64,000 nt of DNA from Parcubacteria bacterium GBS-2 (GTDB lineage Bacteria > Patescibacteriota > Minisyncoccia > Minisyncoccales > GBS-2). The notes under the pieces are model-generated. The model worked only from the letters and a program-made list of their open reading frames with translations. It had not been told where the DNA came from and made no database searches. The position numbers and the translations under genes were made by a program. The stretch lies in the NCBI GenBank assembly GCA_001443025.1, contig LEKP01000001.1, positions 97,889-161,888 of the forward strand, written 5' to 3'. Below, piece after piece: positions 6,103-40,514 of the stretch (its first letter is position 1; every line of letters begins with the position of its first letter).

Positions 6103-6945
6103 ATGCCAAGAAAAAAAGAGAAAAAAGAGAAAAAAGAGAAAAAAGAGAAAAAAGAAGAATTTTACTTTAAAGATCCAAGACATCAACAGGATTTGATTTT
6201 TAAAATTGTTCCGATAGATTCTTTAGATGTGGTTGAGCATCAAAGAAAGCCAAGTAATTATCACGTTACTCATTTAATCTCTTCAATAGAGAGAGTCGGA
6301 TTTATCGTTCCTTTAGTAGTAGTTGAAAAGGATGGGAAATATACAATTTTAGATGGACAACATAGGTTTTTAGCAGCTCAAAAATTGGAATTAAAAGAAC
6401 TACCAGTGATCGTCGTTCCTCAAAAATTGGCAAATTTAATGATGAACTTTAACATCGAGAAAGAACTCAACATCAGAGAGAAATCTTATGTTGCTCTAAA
6501 CATTTACAGACAATACCTAAGGCAAAACTCTCAGCTTTTAGAAACAGAGCCTGTTTTGACAGATTCGATAGAACAGGCCTACTATGTGACATTAGGAATC
6601 GGATATGAAAAAGAGGAAAGGATGAGAGGCGGAATGTTAGAATCGATTATGAAAAAATGTGATTTCTTTTTAGAAATGCCCCTTGAGAAAGCTTTCAAAG
6701 AAAGAGAAAGAAGGTCAGAGAGAGTTCGCCAGGTAAATTCTCTGATCACAGAGATTGCTCAAAAATTAAAAGAAATGGAAAAATGGCACCCCTTCGTTTA
6801 TCAACAGATTTTGTCTTTTGCTAATCCCTATAAAAGAAAGAGGGAACCTATTGAATTTGACGAAATGTTTGATAATCTCATGAAGAATTTAGAGGAGGCA
6901 AAAAAGAATCCAGAAATAATTTTGAAAGAGAAAATTGAGGAATAA
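6103..6945 (+). CDS. ParB/Srx-like nuclease-domain protein with DGQHR motif
   Basis: N-terminal (KEK)n low complexity, then ParB N-terminal-like block IVPIDSLDVVEHQRK..ISSIERVGFIVPLVVV..YTILDGQHRFLAAQKL. Confidence 0.6.
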   Translation: MPRKKEKKEKKEKKEKKEEFYFKDPRHQQDLIFKIVPIDSLDVVEHQRKPSNYHVTHLISSIERVGFIVPLVVVEKDGKYTILDGQHRFLAAQKLELKELPVIVVPQKLANLMMNFNIEKELNIREKSYVALNIYRQYLRQNSQLLETEPVLTDSIEQAYYVTLGIGYEKEERMRGGMLESIMKKCDFFLEMPLEKAFKERERRSERVRQVNSLITEIAQKLKEMEKWHPFVYQQILSFANPYKRKREPIEFDEMFDNLMKNLEEAKKNPEIILKEKIEE

Positions 6946-6946
6946 A

Positions 6947-7336
6947 ATGAAAAAAAAGATTACACTTTCTCTTTTGGATCAGAAATTTGGAATTTGTCAC
7001 TTTGAAAAGAAAACTCCCATTCCAAAATGGGCTCTCGAAGGAGAGTTTTTTTCTATTACCAAAACTGATCAAGAGCTTTCGATAGTTTTTCCTCAAGAGA
7101 AAATTCCTCCTGGAGTTTTGAACGAACCAAATTGGAGAGCTTTTAGAGTTGAGGGAATTGTTGAGGGAATCTTTGCAGTTGGGATCATTGAGGCTTTAGC
7201 AAGACCCTTGGCAGAAAATCAAATCCCAATTTTTAATATCTCCACCTATCAAACAAATTATCTTTTCGTTGAGGAGAAAAATTTAAAAAAAGCAATCAAG
7301 CTTCTCTCTCAATTTTGCAAAATAAATGTTCTTTGA
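6947..7336 (+). CDS. ACT-domain (ACT_7-like) small-molecule-binding protein
   Basis: 129 aa. Pattern LSLLDQKFGICHF..FFSITKTDQELSIV..WRAFRVEG..GIIEALARPLAENQIPIFNISTYQTNYLFV. GAGGA precedes the ATG. Confidence 0.55.
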   Translation: MKKKITLSLLDQKFGICHFEKKTPIPKWALEGEFFSITKTDQELSIVFPQEKIPPGVLNEPNWRAFRVEGIVEGIFAVGIIEALARPLAENQIPIFNISTYQTNYLFVEEKNLKKAIKLLSQFCKINVL

Positions 7337-8483
7337 TTACTTTCAAAGAAAAATTCTAAAACAAAAAATCCTTTTGGAATTAACAAAGCTCAAAGATAGG
7401 AGAGGGTTTTTTAAAGCGGGATTGCCGAGGTTTAATAGGCTTTTTGGAAGAGATTCAATTATTGTTGCTTGGCAATTCTTAAATGAGAGGCCAGGAGTTG
7501 CAAAAGCAACTTTAGAAATTTTATCTCAGTATCAAGGAAAAGTAATCAATGGAGAAAGAGAAGAGGAACCAGGAAAAATCTTGCATGAGTTCGATTTTAA
7601 GTTTAAATCGCACCCTCAATACCATTTTCCATTTCCTTATTATGGCTCCGTTGATTCAACTTTACTTTTTTTAGTTTTGTTTTCTTTTTACTATCAAAAA
7701 ACAAAGGATAAAAAATTTTTGAATTCTCATTGGGAAAATATTTTGAGAGCAATTCACTGGATAGAAGAATATGGAGACAAAGACAAAGATTTATTCATTG
7801 AGTATCAGAGGAAAAGCGAAAACGGATTATTTCATCAAGGATGGAAAGATTCTTTTGAGGATCACTTAAAAATTGACCCTCCAGTTGCTTTAGTTGAGGT
7901 TCAAGGTTATCAGTATTTAGCTTTGAGAGAAATTGCAAATTTAGCAGAAGAAAAGAAAGATTGGGATTTAGTAGATAAACTTGAAGAGAGAGCTTGGCAA
8001 TTAAAGAAAAAATTTAATGAAAAATTTTGGATGGAAGATAAAAAATATTTTGCCTTGGCCTTAGACGGAAAAAAACAACAAAGAAAAGCAATTACTTCAA
8101 ACCCGGGACATCTGCTTTTTACTGGAATAATCAGAGAGAAAGAGAAAATTGAATTGGTGGTAAAAAGACTTTTTGCAAAAGATATGTTTACTCCTTATGG
8201 AATAAGAACCCATTCAGCCCTCGAAGAAGACTTTGATCCAAAATCTTATCATTTAGGTTCTGTTTGGCCCCACGACAATTGGATTATTGCTCAAGGACTT
8301 TTGAAATTGGGATACCAAAAGGAATATCAAAAAATAAGAAAAGCTATTTTGAGAGCTTATAAAGAATTAGGATATTTGCCAGAATATTATGGCGTAGTTG
8401 ATGGAAAAATTACCGTTGATTTACCAACACCTCCTTGTTATCTTCAGGCTTGGAGCTTGGGAGCTTTATTTGATTTTCTCTAA
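7326..8483 (+). CDS. amylo-alpha-1,6-glucosidase / glycogen-debranching-enzyme-like (GDE_C) protein
   Basis: RLFGRDSIIVAWQ, WKDSFEDH, VEVQGYQYLAL, HLGSVWPHDNW: (alpha/alpha)6 GDE_C-type motifs. Only the catalytic domain is present (385 aa). Confidence 0.7.
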   Translation: MFFDYFQRKILKQKILLELTKLKDRRGFFKAGLPRFNRLFGRDSIIVAWQFLNERPGVAKATLEILSQYQGKVINGEREEEPGKILHEFDFKFKSHPQYHFPFPYYGSVDSTLLFLVLFSFYYQKTKDKKFLNSHWENILRAIHWIEEYGDKDKDLFIEYQRKSENGLFHQGWKDSFEDHLKIDPPVALVEVQGYQYLALREIANLAEEKKDWDLVDKLEERAWQLKKKFNEKFWMEDKKYFALALDGKKQQRKAITSNPGHLLFTGIIREKEKIELVVKRLFAKDMFTPYGIRTHSALEEDFDPKSYHLGSVWPHDNWIIAQGLLKLGYQKEYQKIRKAILRAYKELGYLPEYYGVVDGKITVDLPTPPCYLQAWSLGALFDFL

Positions 8484-17444: not shown

Positions 17445-17803
17445 TACTTTCAATTTACTTTTTAAAAAATGTTAATCGCGCTTTAAAATGTTTTTTATTT
17501 TTCCAAAAAACTAATTTTTTTAATGAATAACTTACTACTTAACTCTTTTAGAAATTTAATCGAATCAGTTGCGCTTTAAAGAAAATTTTTTAAAGTTCTC
17601 AAAAGAAGAAATCTAAAATTATTCAATAATTCTCTGAAACTATTTTTTCTGTTATTAAGGGGTGCGTTTTTCGTAATTTATTAAACTAAAGTATAGTATT
17701 TTTTCATATTTTTATTCGTTGAAAAATTAAATGGAAGAATATAATTAAATAATAAAAAATTTACTATTGACAAAAAACAAATAATTTGATTAAATATAAG
17801 AAA

Positions 17804-20317
17804 ATGAAAGAAATAAACCTTCAGCTAATTCTTATTTTTTGTTTTATCCATGTTTTTATTTTCAATTCTTTTGTTTTAGCTGAAACTCAAGAATACGTTG
17901 AGGGAGAAATAATTGTAAAGTTTAAAAAAAACGAAATAGGCCTAAATGATTTTGAAAATCAATTTTCGTTACAAACAAAAGAAACTCTAAATTGGCTAAA
18001 TGTAGTAGTTTTTAAAATTTTAGATCAAAAATCCATTGAAGAAAAAATAGAAGAAATTAAAAAGAATCCTGAAAATAACGCTGAAAATATTATAGAGTAT
18101 GTCGAACCGAATTATTTAAGATATCCTTTAGAAATTAATACCGATGATCCTCATAAAAACCTTCTCTGGGCGTTGGAAAATTTTGGTCAAGGGGTTAATG
18201 GAATTTCAGGAACTGAAGATGCAGACATTGATTTTTCTGAAGCGAGGGAAATGTTAGAAAATATTGAGAACGAAGTAATTGTCGCGATTATTGATACTGG
18301 AGTTGCTTACAATCACCCAGATCTTGATGAAAAAATGTGGAGAGTAAATAATTGGATAGACGAAGAAGGAAATCAAAAAAGTGGAGATGAAATTACTGGA
18401 TTTGATTTTAAAGATAAAGATAATTCTCCTTTAGATAGTGTTGGTCACGGGACGCATTTGGCAGGAGTTATTGGGGCAATTAAAGGGAATAGAAAAGGAA
18501 TCTTAGGAGTAGCGCCTAATGTGAAAATGATGGCTTTGAGAGTAGGAGATGAAAGTGGTTTTTCTGTTGTGGATATAGTGCGAGCAATTTTCTTTGCAAA
18601 AAACAACGGAGCCAAAATTATTAACGCAAGTTTTGGAGGAAAAGGAGAAAGTCAATTAGAAAAAGAAGCAATTTACTATTTCAAAGAGGCTGGCGGACTT
18701 TTTATTACTTCAGCTGGGAACGATGGAATTGATATTGATCAAAGTCCAATTTATCCTTGTGCTTATGAATTGGAAAACATTATTTGCGTAACAGCCACTA
18801 ATCAAAATGATCAATTGGCTAGGTTCTCAAATTATGGAAAAAATTCTGTTGATATTGGGGCACCTGGAGTAAATATTTATAGTGTTTTTCCTTCTTTTTT
18901 GGAAGTTTTTTTTGAAAATTTTGAAAATACTGATTTTTTTGAAAAATTTAATGCCACCGGAGTAGTTGTTACTTCCACAACCAGGGAAAATGAAAATACT
19001 TTAGCATTAAAAACCGATGTAAAAGAAAATGAACCTTGCTTTAATTTTCAATTAAAAAATCCTCTAATTTTTGATAATCTTGAGGAGATTGAAGGGGTTT
19101 ATTTTAATTTTTTGACTAAATTTGAGACAAATTCAAGTTCGACGTATTTAAAATTGAGTTTCAGTCAAAACGAAGAAAATTTTACTGAAATTTTAAAAAT
19201 TTCAAGAGACGATTTGGATAATGAAGAATGGAAGAAAATCAAAATAAAAATTCCTCCTGATTTTTGGGAAGATCTATTTAATTTCAGATTCGAGGGATGT
19301 GTCCAGAATGGCGATATTATTTGGATTGATGATATTAAAATTTTTATTGTAGACGATGGTTCTAATGAAAATTATGAATTTTTAGATGGAACGTCAATTT
19401 CTGCTTCTTTTGTTTCGGGTTTGGCAAGTTTAATTTGGGGAATAAAACCAGAATTAACCTTTTCTGAAGTAAAAGAAATTATTTTAAACACTGGAGATTC
19501 TTTGACTTTTTTGGAAAATAAAACTGCTACTGGGAAAAGAATTAATTTGTTCAGAGCATTAGACAAAATTGAGCCTCCAATTATCGACAACTTCATTGTT
19601 TTTTTCGATATCTCAAACCCTTCTAAAATTTCAGTTCTTAGTTTCGATGCCTATGACAATTCAGGAAATTGTTGGTATTTAGTCAGCGAGGATCCTAATC
19701 CTCCTTCTTTCGATGATCCTCGATGGCTATTTGATCAATTTCCGACCCCAATTGAATATGATCTTCAACGAGAGGGGATTAAAACTCTTTATGGATGGGT
19801 AAAAGATGGAGCTGGAAATTTTGTGAGTACGAGTAGTTCAATTTTAATCGACTGGACTCCCCCTCCTTATCCATTAACACTTTTGAATTTACCTCCAAAA
19901 AACACAAAATCAACTTCCGCAAAAATAATGATTGGAGGAGAGGATGTGGCATTTTATAAATACAAATTAGACAATGGAGATTGGAGTGAAGAATTACCTG
20001 TAACCATTCCAATAGAATTTAGCGAATTATCTTTAGGTTATCACACGCTCTATGTTTTAGGAAGAGATGCGATTGGGAATTGGCAGACAGCTCCAACCAG
20101 TTATACTTGGAGAATATATCGAGAAAGAATGATTTTTCCTTCAATTCCAATAAAAAACGGGGATTTTAACGGCGATGGAAAGGTTGATAAATACGATTTA
20201 GGTTTGATGATGGCTAATTGGGAAAGGAAAGGTGCTAACCCTTACGATTTAAATGGTGATGCCAAAGTCGACAAATATGATTTTGCTTTATTGATGCTAT
20301 ACTGGACTCTAGAATAA
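17804..20317 (+). CDS. secreted subtilisin-like (S8) serine protease with C-terminal type-I dockerin
   Basis: Signal peptide MKEINLQLILIFCFIHVFIFNSFVLA and an I9-like propeptide. Triad contexts IIDTGV, HGTHLAGVIGA, GTSISASFVSGLASL. The C-terminus has two EF-hand-like dockerin segments, DFNGDGKVDKYD and DLNGDAKVDKYD. Confidence 0.85.
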   Translation: MKEINLQLILIFCFIHVFIFNSFVLAETQEYVEGEIIVKFKKNEIGLNDFENQFSLQTKETLNWLNVVVFKILDQKSIEEKIEEIKKNPENNAENIIEYVEPNYLRYPLEINTDDPHKNLLWALENFGQGVNGISGTEDADIDFSEAREMLENIENEVIVAIIDTGVAYNHPDLDEKMWRVNNWIDEEGNQKSGDEITGFDFKDKDNSPLDSVGHGTHLAGVIGAIKGNRKGILGVAPNVKMMALRVGDESGFSVVDIVRAIFFAKNNGAKIINASFGGKGESQLEKEAIYYFKEAGGLFITSAGNDGIDIDQSPIYPCAYELENIICVTATNQNDQLARFSNYGKNSVDIGAPGVNIYSVFPSFLEVFFENFENTDFFEKFNATGVVVTSTTRENENTLALKTDVKENEPCFNFQLKNPLIFDNLEEIEGVYFNFLTKFETNSSSTYLKLSFSQNEENFTEILKISRDDLDNEEWKKIKIKIPPDFWEDLFNFRFEGCVQNGDIIWIDDIKIFIVDDGSNENYEFLDGTSISASFVSGLASLIWGIKPELTFSEVKEIILNTGDSLTFLENKTATGKRINLFRALDKIEPPIIDNFIVFFDISNPSKISVLSFDAYDNSGNCWYLVSEDPNPPSFDDPRWLFDQFPTPIEYDLQREGIKTLYGWVKDGAGNFVSTSSSILIDWTPPPYPLTLLNLPPKNTKSTSAKIMIGGEDVAFYKYKLDNGDWSEELPVTIPIEFSELSLGYHTLYVLGRDAIGNWQTAPTSYTWRIYRERMIFPSIPIKNGDFNGDGKVDKYDLGLMMANWERKGANPYDLNGDAKVDKYDFALLMLYWTLE

Positions 20318-23775: not shown

Positions 23776-26700
23776 ATGGAGTTAAAACTTGTCTATAAAA
23801 ACCTTTGTCCAAATTGTGGGGGAAATATTAGCTCAGAAAGGCTGAGTAAGGGTTTGCCTTGTGAAAATTGTTTGCCAAATGAAAAAGGAAAATTAAAATT
23901 TGGTCCTTTATTGGAAGTTGAAGAAAGAAACAAAAGAATAGAAGAAATTGAAGAGCTTTTCAAAAAAGTAGTGAAAGCTAAAATGTGGGCTTTACAAAAG
24001 TTTTGGGTAAGAAGATTTTTAAAAGGTGAAAGCTTTACTTTGATTGCTCCGACAGGTTCTGGAAAAACGACAATCCAAATAATTTTGTGTTTGTTTTCAG
24101 CAAAATTTTTGAAAAAGAGATGCTTGATAATTTTACCAACCAGCATTTTAGTAAGCGAAGTGTCAAAAAGAATGAAAGATTTTTCAGAAAAATTAAACTT
24201 CAATCTCACAATTTCAAGTTATCACTCTTTACTTTCTCAAAAAGAAAAGAAAGAAGAAATTTCAAAGATTGATTTTGCAGACATTATTGTGACTACTCAC
24301 TTGAGCATAATGAAAAAAGAAGAAATAGCAAGGCAAAGCGTTGATGTTGTTTTTGTCGACGATGTAGATAGTTTTTTGAGAAAGAGCAAGGCAATAAGGT
24401 TTGTCTTGAGAATGATGAAGTTACCAGAAAAAATAAAAAAGATTGTCACAGGTGTTTTTGAAAAAAAGATTAATTTGAAAGATGCAATTTCTGAGATTTC
24501 AAACACAAAAGAAAAAATTACAGCCCAACTCATTGTTAGTGGAGCGACTCAAAAGGCAAAAAGGACAAGGGCAATTTCGATTTTAAATTCAATATTTGGA
24601 TTTTCGATTGGTTTAAAATCTGAGTTTGGAAGGAACATTTTAGATTGCTTTGTTGAGACAAAAGATATTAAAAAAGAGCTTTTAAATTTGGTTAAGATTT
24701 TGGGAGCTGGAGGTTTAATTTTTGTCCCAATGGATAAAAAATCTGAGTTTGCTGAAGAATTGGAGAAATTTTTGATAGAAAATGGAATAAAAGTTAAGGC
24801 ATTTTTAAAACCAGATAAAAAAACCTTTGAAGATTTCAAAAGCGGAAATTTGGATGCTTTAATTGGAATGGTGACAACGAGAAGCCCTCTAGTTAGGGGA
24901 ATTGATTTGCCTGCAAGAATTAGATATGCGATTTTTGGTGGAGTTCCAAAATTTGTAGTGAGAATAAAAATAGAAGAATTCCATCCTACAAAATGGCTAA
25001 TGCTTTTGAACAATCTTCAGCAGGCAATAAAGGAAGAGTATAAAAAAGAATACCAACTCCTTGTTGCAAATTTAATAAAAATAAAAACCTTGAATACAGA
25101 ACAACTGGAAGCAGTCAGAAAAGCTCTTGCTGAAAATAAAAATTTGGAAGGGTTTTTAGAATTTGTAAGGAAAGTTGCCTTAAGTGGATTGGAATTTTTC
25201 AAAAAAATTTTGAAAGATGAAGATATTTTAAAAGCAATAAGAGAATCCCCGACAATAAGCTTTAGCGAAAGAGAAGGGGAGTATTCGTTTTTGATTCCAG
25301 ATTCGATAGCTTACATTCAAGCCTCAGGAAGAACGAGTAGATTGTACATTGGAGGTGTAACAAAAGGATTGAGCGTTGTGATAATAGATGAAAAAAAAGC
25401 ATTCAATTCTTTGAAAAAGGATTTAAGTTATTTTGAAGATATTGAGTGGAAAAATTTGAAAGAAATCGATTTGAAAAAAGTTATTGAAGAGATTGATGAA
25501 GATAGAAAGAAGGTTTTGCTCTCTCTTGAAGATAAGTTGAGAGTGGAAGAAACAAAAATAGCTTTGAAGACAAGGTTATTCATCGTAGAATCACCAACTA
25601 AAGTGAAAACTATTGCGAGATTTTTTGGAAAGCCGGCAAAGAAAAGATACGAAGGTTTAATCGTTAATGAAGTTTTTGGGGCAAATTCCCTATTAATAAT
25701 CACTTCGAGTAAAGGACATATTACTGATTTGAGCGAAGAGGAAGGATTTTTTGGGGTTGAGGTAAAAGAAACCTTCATTCCCTACAATGAGCCAATAAGA
25801 AAGTGCGCAGTTTGTGGGAAAGAAATTGAAGAGAATGAAAAAGAGTGTGCTTGTGGAAGTAAAAAATTTACTGATTCAAAACCAAGAATTGAGGTTTTAA
25901 GAGAGATTGCATCTTTAGTGGATGAAGTGATCATTGGTACTGATCCTGATAGTGAAGGAGAAAGAATTGCTTTTGACTTGTGTTTGCTTTTGAAGCCATT
26001 CAACAAAAACATAAAAAGAGCAAGGTTTCACGAAGTCACAAAGAAAGAAATCCATCGGGTTTTGGAAAATTTGGAAGATTTTGATTTGAATTTGGTCAAG
26101 GCTCAATTGGTAAGAAGAATAGAAGATAGATGGATTGGATTTAGTATTTCTCCTGTACTTTGGATGGTTTTTAAAAACAAAAGGCTTTCTGCAGGAAGGG
26201 TTCAAACTCCAGTTTTGGGATGGGTTGTTGAGAGAACAAAAAAACTTAAAGAAAAAGAAGAGTTAATAAGTTTGAAATTAGAAAATGGCCTTCAATTACA
26301 ATTTAGGGCCAAAAAAGGAACTTATCAAAAAATTTCCAAAGAGGGATTTGTTGAGATAAAAAAAGTAAAGACCTTTAAAGAAGAAATAAGTCCTCTTCCT
26401 CCATTTACCACAGACACTTTTATTTCTGCTTTAACTTCCCTTTTGAAAATCGATGCTGGAGAAGCAATGCAAATTGCTCAAAAATTATTTGAAAGCGGAC
26501 TAATTACTTATCATAGAACTCCAAGCACTACTGTTAGTTCAGCAGGGATTAGTATTGCCAAAGAGTACATTTTTTCGAATTTTGGAGAAGAGTTGTTTAA
26601 AGCAAGAAAATGGGAAACAGAAGGAGCCCACGAATGTATAAGACCAACAAAAGCAATCGATTCTCAAAAGTTGAGAAATTTAATTGGATTGAAAATTTTG

Positions 26701-27333
26701 AGATTTCCAGTTCCTTTCACAGAAAGAGAAATGAGAGCTTATGATTTAATTTTCAAGAGATTTATCGCAAGTCAAATGAAACCTTCTAAAGTTGAGAAAA
26801 TAAAATTTAAAATTTTGGCTGGAGGACAAGAGAAAGAATTTGAATTTGTAAACAAAGTTTTAGAAGAAGGATTTTCAAAGATTTTTAAATTGCAAGAAAA
26901 AAACATTCTCGCTTTAAAAGAGGGAAAAACAAAAATTTTAGAGAGTAAAAAGAAAACAGTTCCAGTTTTTTACCCTTTTACTTACTCAGAAATCGTTTCG
27001 ATGATGAAAGAAAAAGGAATCGGAAGGCCTTCAACTTACGCCAAAATTTTGGAAATTTTAAAAAGAAGAAAATACGTGAAAGAAGTGAAAAAATCCATGT
27101 TAGTTTCTACAGTCTTGGGAAGAAAAGTTTTTGAGTTTTCACAGCAAAATTTTAGTAAATATTTGCACGAACAAACAACCAAAAAATTAGAAGAAGATAT
27201 GGACAGCGTTGAAACCGGAAAGAAAAAATTTGAAGAGGTCTTAAGAGAAATTTTTGTTCAAGTAAAAGAAATTATAAAAAATAACCTTGAAAAAGGAGTT
27301 GAATATCCAAATCTTTCATTGGTTAGATTTTAA
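23776..27333 (+). CDS. rgy: reverse gyrase (helicase-like domain fused to type IA topoisomerase)
   Basis: 1185 aa. N-terminal Zn finger CPNCGG..CENC. Helicase-like motifs APTGSGKTT, DDVD, SGAT, QASGRTSRL. TOPRIM LFIVESPTK and GTDPDSEGERIA. Internal Zn ribbon CAVCGK..CACGSKKF. Catalytic Tyr context LITYHRTPST. Confidence 0.9.
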   Translation: MELKLVYKNLCPNCGGNISSERLSKGLPCENCLPNEKGKLKFGPLLEVEERNKRIEEIEELFKKVVKAKMWALQKFWVRRFLKGESFTLIAPTGSGKTTIQIILCLFSAKFLKKRCLIILPTSILVSEVSKRMKDFSEKLNFNLTISSYHSLLSQKEKKEEISKIDFADIIVTTHLSIMKKEEIARQSVDVVFVDDVDSFLRKSKAIRFVLRMMKLPEKIKKIVTGVFEKKINLKDAISEISNTKEKITAQLIVSGATQKAKRTRAISILNSIFGFSIGLKSEFGRNILDCFVETKDIKKELLNLVKILGAGGLIFVPMDKKSEFAEELEKFLIENGIKVKAFLKPDKKTFEDFKSGNLDALIGMVTTRSPLVRGIDLPARIRYAIFGGVPKFVVRIKIEEFHPTKWLMLLNNLQQAIKEEYKKEYQLLVANLIKIKTLNTEQLEAVRKALAENKNLEGFLEFVRKVALSGLEFFKKILKDEDILKAIRESPTISFSEREGEYSFLIPDSIAYIQASGRTSRLYIGGVTKGLSVVIIDEKKAFNSLKKDLSYFEDIEWKNLKEIDLKKVIEEIDEDRKKVLLSLEDKLRVEETKIALKTRLFIVESPTKVKTIARFFGKPAKKRYEGLIVNEVFGANSLLIITSSKGHITDLSEEEGFFGVEVKETFIPYNEPIRKCAVCGKEIEENEKECACGSKKFTDSKPRIEVLREIASLVDEVIIGTDPDSEGERIAFDLCLLLKPFNKNIKRARFHEVTKKEIHRVLENLEDFDLNLVKAQLVRRIEDRWIGFSISPVLWMVFKNKRLSAGRVQTPVLGWVVERTKKLKEKEELISLKLENGLQLQFRAKKGTYQKISKEGFVEIKKVKTFKEEISPLPPFTTDTFISALTSLLKIDAGEAMQIAQKLFESGLITYHRTPSTTVSSAGISIAKEYIFSNFGEELFKARKWETEGAHECIRPTKAIDSQKLRNLIGLKILRFPVPFTEREMRAYDLIFKRFIASQMKPSKVEKIKFKILAGGQEKEFEFVNKVLEEGFSKIFKLQEKNILALKEGKTKILESKKKTVPVFYPFTYSEIVSMMKEKGIGRPSTYAKILEILKRRKYVKEVKKSMLVSTVLGRKVFEFSQQNFSKYLHEQTTKKLEEDMDSVETGKKKFEEVLREIFVQVKEIIKNNLEKGVEYPNLSLVRF

Positions 27334-27914: not shown

Positions 27915-30900
27915 ATGGAAGAAAAAGAAATCATTGAGAGAGTAATTTTAGAAAACAAAATTGAAAAGTTAAACCCTGTTCAGCAAGGGGCATTAAAAAT
28001 GGGGATTTTGAAAAGGGAAAGCTTGGTTGTTTCTTCTCCAACATCAAGCGGAAAGACTCTTTTGGCAGAATTGGCAGGATTGAACGTTACTCTAAATAAA
28101 AGAAAAAAGATGGTTTATCTTTGTCCCTTAGTTGCTTTGGCAAGGGAAAAATACGAGGATTTCAAAAGAAAATATCAAAAATATGGAATCAAAGTTGCTC
28201 TTTCTGTCGGAAATTATGATTCTTCAGATCCTTGGCTTGAAAAATTTGATTGGATAGTTGCCTCAAATGAAAAATTCGATTCTTTAATCAGGCACGAAGC
28301 TCCTTGGATAGGAGAAATTGGTTTAATTGTTGCAGACGAAATTCATCTTTTGGACGATCCAAGCAGGGGACCGACCTTGGAAATTTTGTTAACGATTTTG
28401 AAAGAAATTTTACCAAAAGCTCAAATTTTGGCATTTTCAGCAACAATCAAAAACGCAGATGAAATAGGGGAGTGGTTGGGAGCAAAAGTTTTAAAATCAA
28501 ATTTTAGGCCAGTCCCTCTTTACAAGGGAATTTTGTTTGGAGGAAAAATAAAATTGTTTGATTTCAAAGAATACAAATTGAGTCAAGAATTAGGACTCGA
28601 AGAATCAATAGTTGAAAACACTCTTTTAATGAAAAAGCAATTGATATTTTTCCTTTCTTCAAGAAGGAATGCCGAGGCCTTAGCAGAAAGGCTTTCAAAA
28701 TTGGTTTTTCACTTTTTGGAAGAAAAAGAAATTGAAAAACTAAGAGAAATTTCAAAGAAAATTGAAACTACATTAGAAATTCCAACTGAGCAATGCAAAA
28801 AATTGGCAAAATGTGTAGAAAAAGGAGTTGCATTCTATCATTCTGGAATTTTGTTTGGACAGAGAGTTTTAATCGAAGAGGCTTATAAAAAGGGATTAAT
28901 AAAAGTCATTACCTCGACAACTGCCCTTTGCGTACATCCAGACACTTTAGTTTATTGTCAAAACGGGGAATTAAAAAAAATTAAAGATCTAAAAATTGGT
29001 GAAAAAATTTTGACCTTCAATTTTAAAAATTTCACTTTTAAATTTGCTAAAGTTCTTAAAAAATTTGCTAGACCTTTATCCAAAAAAGAAAAACTCATTG
29101 AGATAACAACATTCAGTGGGAAAAAAATAATTACAACCTCAACCCACCCATTTCTTACACTAAAAGGAGGACAATTCAAATGGATTTCAGCCTCTCAATT
29201 GAGTAAAAAAGATTATCTCGTAGTAGCTAAAGAAATTCCACAACCAAAAAGCAAAACTCCCAATTTCCTTGAAATTTTACCCAGTAACGCCAGGATAGCG
29301 GAGAAGAAATTAATAAAATTCGTTTTGAACGAATTAATTAAGAAATATAAGACAAAAGTAAACATTTCAAGAAAATTCAAAATAAATATAAAAAAATTGG
29401 AAACTTATTTCAATCGAGGAACGAGCTTGCCTTTTAAATACTTTCGGAGTTTTATTAAAGATTTAGATATAAAACCTGAATTTCTTTCAAGAACAATCCA
29501 TATATCTAGCTGGAAACAAATGGATAAAATAAAAATTTCTCAGAATTTAAATCTTTTAGCAAGACTGTATGGAATTTTGTTAGGTGATGGCAATCTTTTA
29601 AAAGTCAAGAGTTTTAATCGAGGGAATACTTATCTCATCTCTCTTACAAGCGGAGATGAAAAATGGCTTAAACAATATCAGACCCTGTTAAGAAAATTTG
29701 GTCTTCAAACCAAAATTCGGTCCCATCTCAAATTTTCTGGAGTGAAACAAATATCCTTTAAATCAAAAATTTTAGGAGAAATATTACATGAAAAATTAAA
29801 TTTTCCATTGGGAAGAAAAGCGAAAATCATCAAAATAACGCCTTTCTTTCTCTCCTCGAACGAACTTTTAAAAGAGGTAATCGGTGGCTTGATCGACACT
29901 GATGGAAGTATAGGTAAAGATAAAATAGAAATTTCTTCGATTAGTAAAGAATTGATTCAACAACTTCAACTTGCTTTAATGAGATTTGGTATCTATTCCC
30001 ACCTCGAAAAAAGAAAAAAACATCTCACCCGTTTAGTAAAATCAAAAAATCCTTCTTATCGATTGTCTATTTTTGGAAAAAACGCAATTCTCTTTAAAAG
30101 AAATTTTACCTTGCTTCATTATAAAAAAAGAGAAAAGCTCAAGTTAATTAAAGAAAAATCAAACACCTATAGCAAAGATATTATTCCAGATTCTGGCACT
30201 TTTATTAAAAAAATTTTAAAAGAAACAAAATTATCTCAATGGAAATTCAGAAAGATAGTTAAATTGAGCCCCTGGCATTATTTAGTTAAGGGACAAAATC
30301 TTTTAAGGAAAACTATTCTAAATAATTTTTCTAAATTACCCAATTCAAGAACGCTTTGTTTTTTAAGAAAAATAGCAAACTCTCCTTTAGCTTTTGAGCA
30401 AATTAAGCGTATAAAAGAAGTTAAAAAATCGATTGTTTACGATTTAACAACTACTGAGAATTTTTGGGCTAATGGATTTGTGATTCATAATTCCTACGGT
30501 ATCAATCTTCCAAATTTCCGAGCAGTAGTTAGAGATGTGAAAAGATACTATCCAGGATTAGGATCTGTTTATTTGCCGGTTTTGGAAGTTGAACAAATGT
30601 TTGGAAGGTCTGGAAGACCTCAATTTGACAGTTGGGGAGAAGGGATTTTGGTGGCAAAGACAAAAGAAGATGTAAAGGAATTAGAAGATTATTACATTAA
30701 GGGAGAATTAGAAGAAATTTCAAGTAAAATTTCCACAGAATCTGCCTTAAGGATGCATATTTTATCTTTAATTTCAAACAGGTTTTGTAAAAGCCAAAAT
30801 CAATTGTTAGATTTTTTGAAAAAGACATTCTTTGGAAAAAAGTTCAAAGAAATTTTGATTTTAAGAGAGAAAATTGAGGAAGTGATTTTTGCCCTCGAGG

Positions 30901-31625
30901 ATTGGGGATTTATTAAAACAGAAGAAATAAAAGAGGATGGGGAAGTGATAGATAAAAAATTGATGACAACAAGAATCGGTAAAAGAATTTCTCAGCTTTA
31001 CCTGGATCCAGCTAGCGCCAATTTATTCATTGAGAATTTAAGAGATTGTCAAAAAGCAAACGAATTTACCTTATTTTGCCTTCTATCAAAAGCAGAAGAA
31101 TTAAAGCCCTCACCAAGTCTGTCAATGAAGGATGCTTTTTTGATCGAGCAAGAAATTTTCAAGAATGAAGAATACTTTTTCTTTCAAATTCCAGATGAAT
31201 TTGATGAGGAATACGAGGAATTTTTGCGAGAGGCAAAGTTGGCAACGATTTTTAGTTTTTGGATTGAGGAAAAAGCAGAAGGGGAAATTATGGAAAAGTT
31301 AAAAATAACTCCTGGAGAGCTACACTCAAGGATTGAAATTTTAGATTGGTTGCTTTATTCAATTTTGGAAATTTCAAAGTTGATTCCTTTTGATGAAAAA
31401 ATAAAGAAAATGCTAAAAAAACTAAGAGTCAGAGCTTATTATGGAATAAAAGAAGAGTTAATTCCTCTGGTATCTTTGGAGGGAATTGGGAGAATCAGGG
31501 CAAGAACCCTTTTTGATGCAGGATTGAAAACGATTTCAGATTTAAAAAAAGCAAGTGTTGAGAAAATTGCAAAAGTTTTAAAAAGCAAAAGTCTAGCAGA
31601 GAAAATAAAAGAGCAAATTAAATAA
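27915..31625 (+). CDS. hel308: Hel308/Ski2-type DEAH-box DNA helicase, interrupted by an intein
   Basis: Walker A SSPTSSGKT, VADEIHLLDD, AFSATIKN. Motif V is split as STTAL|intein|SYGINLP. Motif VI QMFGRSGRPQFD; C-terminal HhH LEGIGRIRARTLFDAGL. The extein totals 715 aa. Confidence 0.85.
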   Translation: MEEKEIIERVILENKIEKLNPVQQGALKMGILKRESLVVSSPTSSGKTLLAELAGLNVTLNKRKKMVYLCPLVALAREKYEDFKRKYQKYGIKVALSVGNYDSSDPWLEKFDWIVASNEKFDSLIRHEAPWIGEIGLIVADEIHLLDDPSRGPTLEILLTILKEILPKAQILAFSATIKNADEIGEWLGAKVLKSNFRPVPLYKGILFGGKIKLFDFKEYKLSQELGLEESIVENTLLMKKQLIFFLSSRRNAEALAERLSKLVFHFLEEKEIEKLREISKKIETTLEIPTEQCKKLAKCVEKGVAFYHSGILFGQRVLIEEAYKKGLIKVITSTTALCVHPDTLVYCQNGELKKIKDLKIGEKILTFNFKNFTFKFAKVLKKFARPLSKKEKLIEITTFSGKKIITTSTHPFLTLKGGQFKWISASQLSKKDYLVVAKEIPQPKSKTPNFLEILPSNARIAEKKLIKFVLNELIKKYKTKVNISRKFKINIKKLETYFNRGTSLPFKYFRSFIKDLDIKPEFLSRTIHISSWKQMDKIKISQNLNLLARLYGILLGDGNLLKVKSFNRGNTYLISLTSGDEKWLKQYQTLLRKFGLQTKIRSHLKFSGVKQISFKSKILGEILHEKLNFPLGRKAKIIKITPFFLSSNELLKEVIGGLIDTDGSIGKDKIEISSISKELIQQLQLALMRFGIYSHLEKRKKHLTRLVKSKNPSYRLSIFGKNAILFKRNFTLLHYKKREKLKLIKEKSNTYSKDIIPDSGTFIKKILKETKLSQWKFRKIVKLSPWHYLVKGQNLLRKTILNNFSKLPNSRTLCFLRKIANSPLAFEQIKRIKEVKKSIVYDLTTTENFWANGFVIHNSYGINLPNFRAVVRDVKRYYPGLGSVYLPVLEVEQMFGRSGRPQFDSWGEGILVAKTKEDVKELEDYYIKGELEEISSKISTESALRMHILSLISNRFCKSQNQLLDFLKKTFFGKKFKEILILREKIEEVIFALEDWGFIKTEEIKEDGEVIDKKLMTTRIGKRISQLYLDPASANLFIENLRDCQKANEFTLFCLLSKAEELKPSPSLSMKDAFLIEQEIFKNEEYFFFQIPDEFDEEYEEFLREAKLATIFSFWIEEKAEGEIMEKLKITPGELHSRIEILDWLLYSILEISKLIPFDEKIKKMLKKLRVRAYYGIKEELIPLVSLEGIGRIRARTLFDAGLKTISDLKKASVEKIAKVLKSKSLAEKIKEQIK
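28929..30491 (+). mobile_element. class-1 intein with LAGLIDADG homing-endonuclease domain (521 aa)
   Basis: Starts with Cys (CVHPDTLV, block A). Block B TTSTHPF. LAGLIDADG motifs LYGILLGDGNL and GGLIDTDGSI. Ends NGFVIHN followed by +1 Ser. Removing it restores the helicase motif V sequence STTALSYGINLP. Confidence 0.9.
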
Positions 31626-32259
31626 TGCCAGATCTTTTCCAAAGAGAAAGTAAAATTTTGAAGTTTTCTTTTTTCTTTTTCAGAAAAAGACAGTTAAAAT
31701 CGATTTCCTCTTCGATAGTAAAAATTCTTCCTAAGGGAATGAAATTTCTTTTTTCAACTAAACTCACTAATTCCCCAAAACTCAAAAGATTTTTCTTTCT
31801 CAATGGATCTGGATTGTATTTTTGGTAAGAATTTGGAGAGAATTTTTGAATCGTCTCTAAAAATAAAAAAATTTTTGTTACTCTTTTTAGCTCATTAAGC
31901 GCTCTTTCTCTCTCTTTTTTGTTCAAGTATTCAATCACATCAAAACAAGTTACCACCTCAAAACTTTCTTTTTTAAATGGCAACTTCAAAATATTTCCTT
32001 TTATAATTCATTTTTTTGCTGGAGAATTTTTAAGGCAAAAATTAGATATTTCCACTCCAAAAGCCTTGTATCCCATTTTCCTCAGTGCCAAAACTAGCCC
32101 TCCCATTCCACACCCAACATCTAAAAACTTCCAGGATTTTTTTGGTTTCAAAACTTCAACCAGTCTTTTTGCTTCAAACTTTCCTAATTTCTTGTAATTT
32201 TTTAAATAATCGGAATACCAACCACTCGAAAAATATTTTTCATCAAAATCTAGTTTCAT
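31618..32259 (-). pseudogene. class I SAM-dependent methyltransferase interrupted by one in-frame TGA
   Basis: Motif I FLDVGCGMGG lies upstream and FEVVTCFDVIEYL downstream of a single TGA (complement of 32008-32010). Same frame throughout: ..NSPAKK*IIKGNILKLPFKK.. Confidence 0.6.
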
Positions 32260-32266
32260 TTTGAGT

Positions 32267-38696: not shown

Positions 38697-40514
38697 ATGA
38701 GAAAAAACTTTCAAAAATTTATTCTCTTGATGGCCGGAGTTTTAGCAATGAGTATTTTAATTGGTTATTTAGTCCTTGCTTGGACAGAACCTTCTCAAAA
38801 TCCACCCCAAGGAAACGTTCCAGCACCTCTTCATGTGGGTTCTCAAGGACAAGCAAAAGAAGGTGGTTTGATACTCAACACTGGGGGAGCTCCTACAGGT
38901 TTAATCGTTCAACATGGCAACGTCGGCATCGGGACGACGGCACCAGCTTACAAATTAGATATCGCTGGCGATGTTAGATGGACAGGAACTTTACAAGGTG
39001 GTTCTGTTCCCTGGGCAAGATTAACAAGTTTTCCAGGAGATTGCCCTTCAGGCCAATATGTCTATGGAATAGGAAGCACTCTAAAATGCTCTGCTCCACC
39101 AAGTGGTGGTATTGGTGGAAGCGGAACAACGAATTACCTAGCAAAATTCACTGGCTCCACAACAATTGGTAATTCAATCATCTATGATAACGGCAACGTC
39201 GGCATCGGGACGACCGCACCACAAAGACGATTACATGTTAACGGAGAAATAGTATCGAGTAGCTGGGAAACAGGATATGCACAATTTAGGGCCGTAGCAG
39301 CTGACTATGGCTTCATGATTCGAAATGATAATCAGTCTACCTTTTTTTTACTCACGAACTATCGTGACCCATATGGTAGTTACAATAATCTTAGACCGCT
39401 TGCAATACGTAATTTGGACGGTACCGTAACTTTGGGTAAGGTATTATGGGTTCAGCATGATGGCAACGTCGGCATCGGGGCGGGGTGGCCACTGCAAAAA
39501 TTACATGTAGAGGGCAATGCATACATTAGTGGCAATCTCGGCGTTGGAACGTTCCGCCCAGAGAGACGACTACATGTTTACGGAGAAATACTATCGAGTA
39601 GATGGGACACAGGACATGCACAGTTCAGAGCTATAGGAAATGACTATGGCTTCATGATTCGAAATGATGGTATTGCTACTTATTTTTTACTCACGAACCG
39701 TGGTGACCCATATGGTGGTTGGAATACGCTTAGACCACTTACAATACATGATTCGGACGGCTCCGTATATTTGGGCAATGTATTATGGGTTCAGCATGGT
39801 GGCAACGTCGGCATCGGGACGACGGCACCAGCTTATAAATTAGATGTAGCTGGCGCAGTCCACGGCACAAGCTTCCCAGTTTCTTCAGATATAAGGTTCA
39901 AAGAAAACATTGTTCCATTAAGTAGCTCAGGCAGTATTTTGGAAAAATTAGAAAATCTCAAAGGAGTGTATTTTGAGTGGAACGAAGCCTACAAGAAATT
40001 GGGAAGAGCTGTACCAGGCAGACACATTGGTTTAATTGCTCAAGAAGTTCAACAACAATTTCCAGAGATTGTTTCTGTTTGGGGTGATGATTCTGATTAT
40101 TTGGCAATTGACTATAGCAGATTTTCAGTTGTCCTTTTGGAGGGAATAAAAGAACTTTACCAACAAACTAAAGCTCAGCAAAAAGAGATTGAAGAAATGA
40201 AACTTCAACTAAATTCTTTAGGTCAAATTGGATCAGAACCAACTGACGATTCCCAAAATTTTGTTGGAAAAATAAAACAAGTCTTAACTTTCCTTGGCTT
40301 CTTTCTTGAAAATGACATCGCCAAGATAAAAGAGATAATCACTGAGAAGCTTTCAGCTGAAGTAATTGTTTCAAAGAAAATCGAAACTGAAAGGATGATC
40401 ACAAAAGAAATTCAAATGGTTGATAAGGTAACTGGAAAAGTTTATTGTCTCTGGATTGAAAATGGAGAATTGATGAAAATAGAAGGGGAATGTGAGTCAA
40501 TGAATAACGAATAA
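38697..40514 (+). CDS. tail-fibre-like surface protein with C-terminal S74-type intramolecular chaperone domain
   Basis: N-terminal TM helix then AWTEPSQNPPQGN. Four GNVGIGT(T)AP..KL(D/H)V.G repeats and a duplicated ~100-aa module. SSDIRFKENI..LKGVYFEWNE..HIGLIAQEVQ..AIDYSRF matches the endosialidase/tail-spike chaperone pattern. The DNA is visibly more GC-rich than its neighbours. Confidence 0.7.
   Translation: MRKNFQKFILLMAGVLAMSILIGYLVLAWTEPSQNPPQGNVPAPLHVGSQGQAKEGGLILNTGGAPTGLIVQHGNVGIGTTAPAYKLDIAGDVRWTGTLQGGSVPWARLTSFPGDCPSGQYVYGIGSTLKCSAPPSGGIGGSGTTNYLAKFTGSTTIGNSIIYDNGNVGIGTTAPQRRLHVNGEIVSSSWETGYAQFRAVAADYGFMIRNDNQSTFFLLTNYRDPYGSYNNLRPLAIRNLDGTVTLGKVLWVQHDGNVGIGAGWPLQKLHVEGNAYISGNLGVGTFRPERRLHVYGEILSSRWDTGHAQFRAIGNDYGFMIRNDGIATYFLLTNRGDPYGGWNTLRPLTIHDSDGSVYLGNVLWVQHGGNVGIGTTAPAYKLDVAGAVHGTSFPVSSDIRFKENIVPLSSSGSILEKLENLKGVYFEWNEAYKKLGRAVPGRHIGLIAQEVQQQFPEIVSVWGDDSDYLAIDYSRFSVVLLEGIKELYQQTKAQQKEIEEMKLQLNSLGQIGSEPTDDSQNFVGKIKQVLTFLGFFLENDIAKIKEIITEKLSAEVIVSKKIETERMITKEIQMVDKVTGKVYCLWIENGELMKIEGECESMNNE

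Follow-up and report, generated by a model that had tools for sequence, protein, structure and literature searches.

The stretch of DNA analyzed here, hereafter the window, comprises 64,000 nucleotides of the Parcubacteria bacterium GBS-2 genome (contig LEKP01000001.1) and carries a Hel308 helicase precursor gene directly downstream of a reverse gyrase gene (Table 1). The precursor reading frame contains no internal stop codons and consists of an N-extein that stops halfway through motif V (...VITSTTAL), an intein of 521 aa (1563 nt), and a C-extein that opens with the codon for the +1 Ser (30492-30494) and the remaining half of motif V (SYGINLP), followed by motif VI, winged helix, ratchet domain 4, and HhH domain. 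The intein starts with CVHPDTLV, its Cys1 being precursor Cys339 (codon beginning at nt 28929), and ends with FVIHN, its Asn521 being precursor Asn859 (codon finishing at nt 30491), after which Ser follows immediately. The insertion point lies between Leu338 and a motif V residue that is usually Ala, but is Ser in this gene. The intein-excised site reads TCGACAACTGCCCTT before the junction and TCCTACGGTATCAATCTTCC after it, while the empty Hel308 allele at the insertion site reads ...ACTGCTTTA and GCTTTTGGAGTC, respectively. A six-frame scan of the window using an HMM of the GBS-2 intein detected no second intein, and an Rfam scan of the window matched only a tRNA. A downstream methyltransferase gene of GBS-2 contains a nonsense codon, so gene decay does occur locally.

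Table 1. Positions within the window of the helicase precursor gene, the parts of its intein, and the adjacent reverse gyrase gene.
Feature	Positions	Strand	Basis
Reverse gyrase gene, directly upstream of Hel308 (context, not intein)	23776..27333	+	TIGR01054, 1164 bits
Hel308 helicase precursor gene (N-extein + intein + C-extein)	27915..31625	+	ORF list; 1236 aa plus stop
N-extein, aa 1-338 (RecA1 and most of RecA2)	27915..28928	+	Pfu Hjm 10-330, Afu Hel308 17-332
Intein, 521 aa, Cys1 to Asn521	28929..30491	+	Boundaries, family scans, AlphaFold model, Foldseek
Hint N-terminal lobe, intein aa about 1-100	28929..29228	+	TIGR01445 on intein aa 1-77; model beta strands
Helical insert between Hint N-lobe and endonuclease, intein aa about 113-179	29265..29465	+	Model helices
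LAGLIDADG homing endonuclease core, intein aa about 189-405	29493..30143	+	Pfam LAGLIDADG_3 (two matches), motifs, fold
C-terminal helical domain ahead of block F, intein aa about 422-484	30192..30380	+	Model helices
Hint C-terminal lobe (block F VYDLTTTENFWANG and block G FVIHN)	30387..30491	+	TIGR01443, motif positions
C-extein, 377 aa plus stop	30492..31625	+	Pfu Hjm 331-684; Pfam HTH_61, Helicase_dom4_arc, HHH_5

Architecture of the intein and of the intein-excised helicase

Within the N-terminal Hint lobe, block A supplies Cys1 and block B the T70-x-x-H73 motif (TSTH, intein aa 70-73, nt 29136-29147), while the C-terminal lobe contains D505 in block F (intein aa 503-516) and the terminal His-Asn pair (aa 520-521). 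Cys1, T70/H73, D505, H520, N521, and Ser+1 are all intact in the GBS-2 intein, and the same set of splicing residues (Cys1, TxxH, block F Asp, His-Asn, and Ser+1) is invariant across ten aligned site-b inteins. The endonuclease core bears LAGLIDADG-1 (LYGILLGDGNL, intein aa 213-223, nt 29565-29597) with the acidic residue D220 (LLGD220G) and LAGLIDADG-2 (VIGGLIDTDGSI, intein aa 317-328, nt 29877-29912) with the acidic residue D324 (IDTD324G). Family profiles detect both the splicing and the endonuclease domains: Pfam Intein_splicing (PF14890) matched with an E-value of 2e-23 and 83.4 bits against a cutoff of 35.8, Pfam LAGLIDADG_3 (PF14528) matched two stretches (E 6e-19), and the NCBIfam models intein_Nterm (TIGR01445) and intein_Cterm (TIGR01443) scored 40.1 bits (cutoff 24.5) and 16.8-18.0 bits (cutoff 15.6), respectively. 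Such matches are far beyond chance expectation. With its conserved blocks, its nucleophiles, and its in-frame insertion, the GBS-2 insert qualifies, as judged from sequence, as a class-1 Hint-fold intein.

Structural modeling is consistent with this assignment. The AlphaFold model of the intein (pLDDT 84.5, pTM 0.85) places beta strands at model residues 19-112, corresponding to intein aa 7-100, and helices at model residues 125-191 and 434-496. The top Foldseek matches of the model were PI-TkoII (2cw7, E 1.6e-21), the TliVMA intein, and PI-PfuI, with PI-SceI also recovered, while the endonuclease core resembles I-DmoI and I-Tsp061I in fold (TM about 0.7, normalized to target). Based upon the motifs, the profile matches, and the fold, the endonuclease is predicted to be a monomeric, two-motif LAGLIDADG enzyme with the pseudo-dimeric alpha-beta-beta-alpha-beta-beta-alpha fold. 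Like PI-TkoII, PI-PfuI (1dq3), the Tli and Pho VMA inteins (7qss, 7qst), and PI-SceI (1vde), the GBS-2 intein has a Hint domain interrupted by an endonuclease with two LAGLIDADG motifs, together with accessory domains (Foldseek E 1e-21 to 1e-10, TM-scores 0.5-0.75 normalized to target length). However, these solved inteins share just 11-20% sequence identity with it and reside in DNA polymerase, RNR, and V-ATPase hosts, and neither of the two GBS-2 accessory helical domains has an obvious match to their "stirrup" or DRR domains. The helical insert, which is missing from the 399-405-aa and 240-aa inteins of the same site, is probably an accessory DNA-binding domain, whereas the C-terminal helical domain is kept in the 240-aa mini-intein (P0039/L008) that has neither LAGLIDADG motif.

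Excision of the intein yields a protein of 715 aa reading STTAL-SYGINLP and regains the Pfam Helicase_C match, and the spliced sequence is covered by Hel308 models in one unbroken stretch. Pfam detects DEAD, Helicase_C, HTH_61, Helicase_dom4_arc, and HHH_5 on this sequence, from which the five-domain Hel308 layout (RecA1, RecA2, winged helix, ratchet domain 4, and HhH domain 5) is predicted to be present after excision. The solved archaeal Hel308/Hjm structures 2zj2, 2p6r, and 2va8, which have the same five domains and are collinear with the spliced protein, were matched by phmmer (E 1e-104 to 1e-136). Against P. furiosus Hjm (2zj2), precursor residues 5-338 align with 10-330 and precursor residues 860-1221 with 331-684; since residue 330 continues directly to 331, the helicase has no gap at the junction. 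The NCBIfam Hel308 models match at E 1e-197 to 1e-204, but the scores fall below the equivalog cutoffs (488.8 versus 1200 bits for NF040935, helicase_Hel308; 681.3 versus 887 bits for NF002654) and the GBS-2 extein is therefore a divergent Hel308. Unlike its archaeal counterparts, it is also bacterially encoded and has Ser in place of Ala at +1. A preliminary description of this locus had proposed a full-length LAGLIDADG intein with exactly these boundaries, inserted into SF2 motif V of a Hel308-type helicase with a C-terminal HhH domain, and each of these points is borne out by the profile matches and complete motif set, the alignment of the terminal residues to splicing-domain models, the restored motif, and the full-length alignments to 2zj2 and 2p6r.

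Distribution, mobility, and selection

ATPase motifs are favored locations for inteins, and inteins occupy this same motif V site in 14 homologues, all following the pattern C...HN and then S, with sizes of 240, 399-405, and 521-528 aa. In archaea, the site shares the pattern T-P/T-T/A-L, then C...H-N, then S-x-G-[IV]-N-L-P, and it is filled in Thermococcus MAGs (403 aa), Methanobacteriota and Thermoplasmata (393 aa), Nitrososphaeria (404 aa), Nanoarchaeia (515 aa), Iainarchaeum (504-511 aa), and Aenigmatarchaeota (240, 405, and 527-528 aa). The motif V site is consequently a widespread archaeal intein allele rather than a new one. The GBS-2 intein shares only 42-45% identity with its nearest archaeal counterparts (P0027 and P0029) and about 30% with the 400-aa type. 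Three further intein sites exist in the same helicase of the Hel308 family. Nanohaloarchaea inteins were considered as members of the same allele and rejected, as they occupy a different site (FHHAGL, then C...AHN, then T). The "Mja Helicase" intein of InBase is presumably a helicase intein of comparable kind, and M. jannaschii Hel308 (MJ1124) probably bears an intein near the motif V position. In their article, Novikova et al. 2016 (PMC4760082) list eleven Ski2-like/Hel308 (COG1204) helicase inteins in Euryarchaeota, which reside in the same host protein family as the GBS-2 intein, although the GBS-2 host is a bacterium of the CPR. Our literature search for a catalogued motif V site returned only this general Ski2/COG1204 listing in the article text.

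Empty alleles are abundant. Among 102 intein-free homologues, the +1 residue is Ala in 95, Ser in four (P0032, P0033, P0035, and P0076), and Gly in the remaining three. The idea that homologous helicases might carry the segment as a non-intein domain finds no support among close orthologues, as P0008, P0010, and P0011 encode proteins of 715 aa from which the segment is wholly missing, and the syntenic locus L037 has an empty site reading TAL-AFGV.

Within the bacterial clade, the distribution of the intein is patchy, with every intein-bearing tip having an intein-free sister, and two intein variants of about 68% identity are spread discordantly with the host-gene tree. For example, P0002 and P0005 have exteins that are 96.5% identical and inteins that are 67.8% identical, with identity changing abruptly at the junctions. 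Conversely, P0003 and P0004 share 93-95% intein identity with P0005 but only 82% extein identity. JGI sample 3300050342 is the source of P0003 as well as P0004. Synonymous divergence within pairs is similarly uneven, as dS is 0.14-0.43 for the intein versus 0.72-2.06 for the flanking exteins. In the P0004/P0005 pair, high identity extends about 20 codons beyond the C-terminal junction, whereas in near-identical hosts with different variants, the junction-proximal sequence is less similar than the distal sequence. Both patterns are those expected of co-conversion. The intein as a whole has a dN/dS of 0.12-0.17 and the endonuclease core 0.09-0.12 in three of four pairs, the exception being P0004/P0005 (0.4, with few substitutions). 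The Hint C-lobe has no nonsynonymous changes in any of the four pairs, while extein dN/dS is 0.04-0.09, indicating a host gene under selection. Collectively, the patchy variants, low intein dS, and low dN/dS argue for recent homing of a functional element, and its spread through related bacteria appears to be continuing. What had been described as an apparently intact element can accordingly be upgraded to one that is probably under purifying selection and recently mobile. Some of the discordance could stem from recombination of larger gene segments rather than from endonuclease-driven homing.

The same patchiness might instead reflect vertical inheritance since the acquisition of the helicase, followed by repeated precise losses, with an endonuclease that is possibly inactive now. 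The intein-free sister of each intein-bearing tip is compatible with such a history and the four intein-free homologues with Ser+1 could be footprints of precise loss. However, inheritance with loss alone fails because, pair by pair, the inteins have several-fold lower dS than the exteins around them, the near-identical hosts P0002 and P0005 hold such divergent variants, and the endonuclease core is under purifying selection; we consider this scenario unlikely. Less probable still, and only barely credible, is the idea that the intein is domesticated or degenerate and has stopped splicing, such that the 1236-aa protein would be either dead or working with its insert retained. Motif V is indeed split, splicing is predicted from sequence, and genes do decay nearby, but the catalytic residues are all present, the Hint C-lobe and the exteins are conserved as described above, and a helicase with 521 aa in motif V is unlikely to function, judging from SF2 structure.

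Host genome and ancestry of the helicase

The window carries GroEL, DnaG, RpoD, bacterial S12, EF-G, EF-Tu, and SecY, with DnaG and RpoD at 14-17 kb and the str operon at 41-45 kb placing bacterial genes on either side of Hel308, and GC content is about 0.3 throughout. The best named relative of SecY, and the sole named one, is a Parcubacteria group bacterium. The host genome is that of a CPR/Patescibacteria bacterium. An archaeal (DPANN) window was first suggested by the named Hel308 matches, all of which are Aenigmarchaeota, and was ruled out by these bacterial markers. The DnaG-RpoD...rgy-Hel308 synteny is kept on a 796-kb contig, the adjacency of reverse gyrase and Hel308 is kept in L035, L037, and L043, and the arrangement is repeated in independent assemblies, including contigs of 38, 517, and 796 kb. 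In a basal member of the clade, Hel308 is flanked by an F-type ATPase operon, LigA, and UvrD, and SecY and Hel308 are probably located together on three further contigs, since both match contigs of 65,312, 81,241, and 36,431 bp. An assembly or binning artefact that fused archaeal (Aenigmarchaeota) DNA to a CPR contig can thus be practically dismissed: for both Hel308 and reverse gyrase, the closest named relatives are archaea, and Hel308 has been described as "absent from fungi and bacteria" (PMC7776575), but the bacterial flanks, even GC content, independent assemblies, basal clade member, and SecY contigs all contradict it.

In an extein-only tree, built by neighbor-joining from the best 120 matches only, lacking support values and a broader archaeal outgroup, the sequences fall into two clades, one of bacterial context and the other of Aenigmarchaeota. 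Beyond the CPR clade, the nearest relatives of reverse gyrase are Aenigmatarchaeota (59-63% identity), and those of Hel308 beyond the bacterial clade are likewise Aenigmarchaeota. Because both genes have their nearest relatives outside the clade in the same lineage, transfer from archaea to CPR is likely, the most likely donors of Hel308 and its neighbor reverse gyrase being Aenigmarchaeota-like DPANN archaea. We infer the direction and number of transfers from the reported lack of Hel308 in bacteria (PMC7776575). The archaeal ancestry originally suspected for both host gene and intein is supported by these relatives and by the same-site archaeal inteins, and as the genome is that of a CPR bacterium, such ancestry amounts to horizontal acquisition. 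A precedent is form III-like RuBisCO, for which PMC8407114 credits the report of lateral transfer between Aenigmarchaeota/DPANN and CPR to Jaffe et al. 2019. The inferred donor and recipient lineages are the same pair, but the GBS-2 genes serve genome maintenance and have a selfish element aboard.

Overall, we favor, with a probability of roughly 0.9, a class-1 LAGLIDADG intein in motif V of an archaea-derived CPR Hel308 that splices and homes among lineages. By analogy with other inteins, translation would give a 1236-aa precursor with a split RecA2 domain, from which the Hint domain would excise itself through an N-S acyl shift at Cys1, transesterification to Ser+1, cyclization of Asn521 aided by His520, and a final O-N shift. 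Splicing would leave an active helicase of 715 aa and release the 521-aa endonuclease, which presumably cuts the motif V coding sequence of intein-free Hel308 alleles. Repair of the cut allele off the intein-bearing copy would then convert it, thus completing homing. On a longer timescale, the CPR host most likely gained Hel308 and reverse gyrase from an Aenigmarchaeota-like DPANN archaeon, in which the site holds related inteins, with the intein presumably continuing to move between lineages within the bacterial clade. The fuller scenario, in which hot-spring CPR took both genes from such archaea and the motif V intein, whether co-arriving or later, homes among CPR as a tracer of DNA exchange, is advanced tentatively, at slightly less than even odds.

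The intein itself is ordinary, as its architecture is standard and many archaeal Hel308 genes bear an intein at the same position. Of greater consequence is the presence of a bona fide Hel308-type helicase, stably inherited beside reverse gyrase in a CPR/Patescibacteria clade, with which genome-maintenance genes join the known gene traffic between DPANN and CPR. Furthermore, the variant discordance, low dS, and co-conversion-like tracts constitute direct sequence evidence that uncultivated CPR lineages have recently exchanged DNA and undergone homologous recombination. With full-length, 400-aa, and 240-aa inteins sharing one site, and three other sites besides, the family should provide a handy system for the study of intein gain, decay, and competition. 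If the fuller scenario is correct, the intein would be a natural tracer of chromosomal exchange and recombination among ultra-small, supposedly isolated episymbionts, perhaps still including exchange with DPANN, and a Hel308 that serves replication and repair in bacteria would run counter to the distribution that textbooks give for the family.

The intein in motif V of Hel308

The 521-aa LAGLIDADG intein proposed in the preliminary description lies exactly where it had been placed, within an uninterrupted helicase reading frame of 1236 aa: boundaries, motifs and profile matches all agree. The intein starts with CVHPDTLV, ends with FVIHN and is followed by Ser, and Asp-Gly closes both LAGLIDADG helices (D220 and D324). 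In profile searches, Pfam Intein_splicing was matched with an E-value of 2e-23 and LAGLIDADG_3 in two stretches with 6e-19. The intein ends match dedicated profiles as well, with NCBIfam intein_Nterm spanning intein aa 1-77 and intein_Cterm spanning the final 20 residues with a score over its cut-off. Such matches leave no room for a chance origin. The insertion junction, ATPTL/SAGINTP (slashes mark intein junctions), falls in SF2 motif V of Ski2-like helicases, as this motif is established for the SF2 family. As had been claimed, excision of exactly 1563 nt yields a 715-aa helicase, which regains its Helicase_C match and is matched by Hel308 models as one stretch. Furthermore, precursor residues 5-338 and 860-1221 align to residues 10-330 and 331-684 of 2zj2, the structure of P. 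furiosus Hjm. This alignment is continuous across the intein, and thus the helicase neither loses nor repeats a residue there. Compared with its exteins, the intein has more Lys, less Glu and a slightly lower GC content (0.287 versus 0.331), a difference in composition that explains why GC skew dips there. A six-frame search of the whole window with an HMM of this intein found no second one.

The intein, extended by 12-aa flanks, was modeled in AlphaFold2 with ten homologues as input (mean pLDDT 84.5, pTM 0.85), and the model predicts the domains listed in the table. Its top PDB matches are intein homing endonucleases, namely PI-TkoII (E 1.6e-21), the TliVMA intein, PI-PfuI, the PhoVMA intein and PI-SceI, while the endonuclease core alone resembles I-DmoI and I-Tsp061I.

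Features of the intein and of neighboring genes in the window
Feature	Window position (strand)	Intein aa	Description
Subtilase	17786-20317 (+)		843 aa; fervidolysin-like N-terminal prodomain, C-terminal type I dockerin domain
Reverse gyrase	23776-27333 (+)		full-length; TIGR01054, 1164 bits; directly upstream of Hel308
Hel308 precursor	27915-31625 (+)
Intein	28929-30491 (+)	1-521	Cys339 from nt 28929, Asn859 to nt 30491; 1563 nt
Hint N-lobe		~7-100	beta-rich; AlphaFold2 model
Block B T-x-x-H		70-73
Helical insert		~113-179	AlphaFold2 model
Pseudo-dimeric LAGLIDADG core		~189-405	AlphaFold2 model
LAGLIDADG-1		213-223	LYGILLGDGNL
LAGLIDADG-2		317-328	VIGGLIDTDGSI
Second helical domain		~422-484	AlphaFold2 model
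Hint C-lobe		~487-521	AlphaFold2 model
Block F		503-516	VYDLTTTENFWANG
His-Asn		520-521
Methyltransferase	31618-32260 (-)		downstream of Hel308; in-frame TGA at 32008-32010
Gp34/Peptidase_S74 protein	38697-40514 (+)		605 aa; phage long-tail-fibre Gp34 trimerisation and Peptidase_S74 (endosialidase chaperone) domains

A bacterial host and an archaeal-type helicase

The window encodes GroEL, a DnaG-type primase, RpoD, bacterial S12/S7, EF-G, EF-Tu, SecY and a bacterial AlaRS, and the sole named close relative of its SecY is from a Parcubacteria group bacterium (62% identity), which together place the host within the CPR/Patescibacteria. The class within the CPR is inconsistent between sources, as the nearest GTDB loci, L003 and L004, are labeled 'Candidatus Saccharibacteria' versus 'Parcubacteria group' for SecY. 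The named Hel308 matches, all Candidatus Aenigmarchaeota, hint at a DPANN archaeon as the host, but the bacterial genes of the window rule this out. Nor is the locus chimeric, since within the window the helicase has bacterial genes on either side, a 796-kb contig repeats the order DnaG-RpoD-...-reverse gyrase-Hel308(intein) at 80% protein identity, a 517-kb contig repeats reverse gyrase-Hel308(intein), and the identical sequence is found in independent ENA and JGI assemblies.

A neighbor-joining tree of 120 exteins, built without support values or a wider outgroup, separates a bacterial-context group from an Aenigmarchaeota group. In the former, bacterial contexts were found in the members inspected, P0004, P0008 and P0049 (the last beside LigA, Pol III tau, F-type ATPase and UvrD); P0020 has no domain-diagnostic neighbors and a gene order common to other clade members. 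The latter includes every Aenigmarchaeota-named protein, with P0061 and P0029 in archaeal contexts (PolB, Hjc, Nop5, fibrillarin). The reverse gyrase is 70-86% identical to its CPR relatives, followed by Aenigmatarchaeota (59-63%) and Sulfolobales (~49%), and it suggests a thermophilic CPR lineage carrying a gene of archaeal origin. Both the extein tree and the nearest relatives of reverse gyrase support the archaeal ancestry suggested for the helicase gene, the organism itself being bacterial. As Hel308 is described as lacking in fungi and bacteria (PMC7776575), the parsimonious reading is that Hel308 and reverse gyrase would have been acquired from Aenigmarchaeota-like archaea. Co-transfer is not established, because the two genes are non-adjacent in the archaeal loci inspected and also in clade members P0049, P0020 and P0002. 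Aenigmarchaeota-to-CPR transfer has a precedent in RuBisCO, as cited in PMC8407114, and the list of MAGs without reverse gyrase in PMC9789041 omits a hot-spring Patescibacteria MAG. We found no publication that describes Hel308 from CPR bacteria or an intein in it, a weak negative given incomplete literature coverage.

The methyltransferase downstream of Hel308 reads NSPAKK-stop-IIKGN at its in-frame TGA versus NSPAKKWIIKGN in the L043 orthologue (6704-7345), which has Trp there. This is likely a nonsense pseudogene or a sequencing error; TGA reassignment is countered by long ORFs elsewhere in the window. The rpsL-rpsG-fusA-tuf operon follows shortly after the gene for the Gp34/Peptidase_S74 protein, which may be what is left of a prophage or else a fibre for attachment to a host.

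Relatives, empty sites and mobility of the intein

Eleven archaeal Ski2-like/Hel308 inteins are on record in Euryarchaeota under COG1204 in Novikova et al. 2016 (PMC4760082). In public genomes, the same motif V site is filled in Thermococcus, Methanobacteriota, Thermoplasmata, Nitrososphaeria, Nanoarchaeia, Iainarchaeum and Aenigmatarchaeota, making it a widespread archaeal allele, and the element therefore belongs to an already known kind. As a lead only, the InBase 'Mja Helicase' intein presumably lies close to this position in M. jannaschii MJ1124. Searched exhaustively with phmmer, 1.84 billion representatives yielded 2328 relatives of the window's intein at E <= 1e-3, among which only the intein's own cluster and that of P0027 exceed 40% identity.

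Among the best 120 precursor homologues, 14 carry an intein at exactly the motif V site, all fitting T-x-x-L / C...H-N / S-x-G-[IV]-N-L-P. They comprise a 521-528 aa class (the window's type), a 399-405 aa class from another endonuclease lineage (~30% identity) and one 240-aa mini-intein, P0039 (locus L008 923-1714, an Aenigmatarchaeota MAG), which has lost both LAGLIDADG motifs. Its retention of the C-terminal helical domain (window intein aa ~422-484) indicates that this domain goes with the splicing module, not the endonuclease. Elsewhere in the Hel308 family, inteins occur after 'YD' near extein residue 102 (P0012, 496 aa, Ser1...Lys-Asn/Ser), in motif VI (P0085, a 231-aa mini-intein, GR/C...HN/CGRP) and after FHHAGL (Nanohaloarchaea SG9, locus L006 3001-4656).

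Intein-free alleles are abundant (102 homologues), and their +1 residue, the first of the C-extein, is Ala in 95, Ser in 4 and Gly in 3, whereas every intein-bearing allele at the site has Ser. The four intein-free Ser alleles (P0032, P0033, P0035 and P0076) may record the precise loss of an intein, or they may be pre-adapted to invasion. P0008 provides a true empty site, ...ACTGCTTTA/GCTTTTGGAGTC (TAL/AFGV), as evidenced by its length of 715 aa, its 84% identity to the window's extein and the shared gene order (reverse gyrase ... Hel308 - methyltransferase - acetyltransferase - pyrophosphatase - HD).

In the bacterial clade of the extein tree, an intein-free sister stands beside each intein-bearing tip, and two intein variants, ~68% identical, are present: alpha (P0001, which is the window's own, and P0002) and beta (P0003, P0004 and P0005). 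Their distribution contradicts that of the host gene. Between P0002 and P0005, identity is 96.5% in the exteins but 67.8% in the inteins, dropping sharply at residues 340 and 860. The inteins of P0003 and P0004 share 93-95% identity with that of P0005, although their exteins are only 82% identical to those of P0005. Likewise, the window intein is 89% identical to that of P0002 (exteins 82.6%) and 68% to that of P0003 (exteins 89.9%). Synonymous divergence (dS) is several-fold lower in the intein (0.14-0.43) than in the flanking exteins of the same pairs (0.72-2.06); P0002/P0005 are the opposite, with extein dS of 0.18-0.29 and a saturated intein dS (68.5% nt identity). In sliding windows, the high identity of P0004 and P0005, which share a variant, extends ~20 codons past the C-junction and then drops, and near-identical hosts with different variants have junction-side flanks of 80-87% versus 97-100% in distal sequence, which is the expected outcome of co-conversion during double-strand-break repair. 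Whole-intein dN/dS is 0.12-0.17, and that of the endonuclease core is 0.09-0.12 in three of four pairs (0.4 on 21 substitutions in the remaining pair); in the Hint C-lobe, all four pairs lacked nonsynonymous changes. Taken together, variant/host discordance, low intein dS, the co-conversion pattern and dN/dS argue that splicing and endonuclease functions would both have been maintained and that transfer was probably recent.

The preliminary description is thereby confirmed in its observation and supported in its interpretation. The intein in itself is ordinary. What adds to its interest is that a CPR bacterium hosts this archaeal-type pair of helicase and reverse gyrase, and that sequences from uncultivated CPR lineages bear clear signatures of what appears to be intein homing still under way among them.
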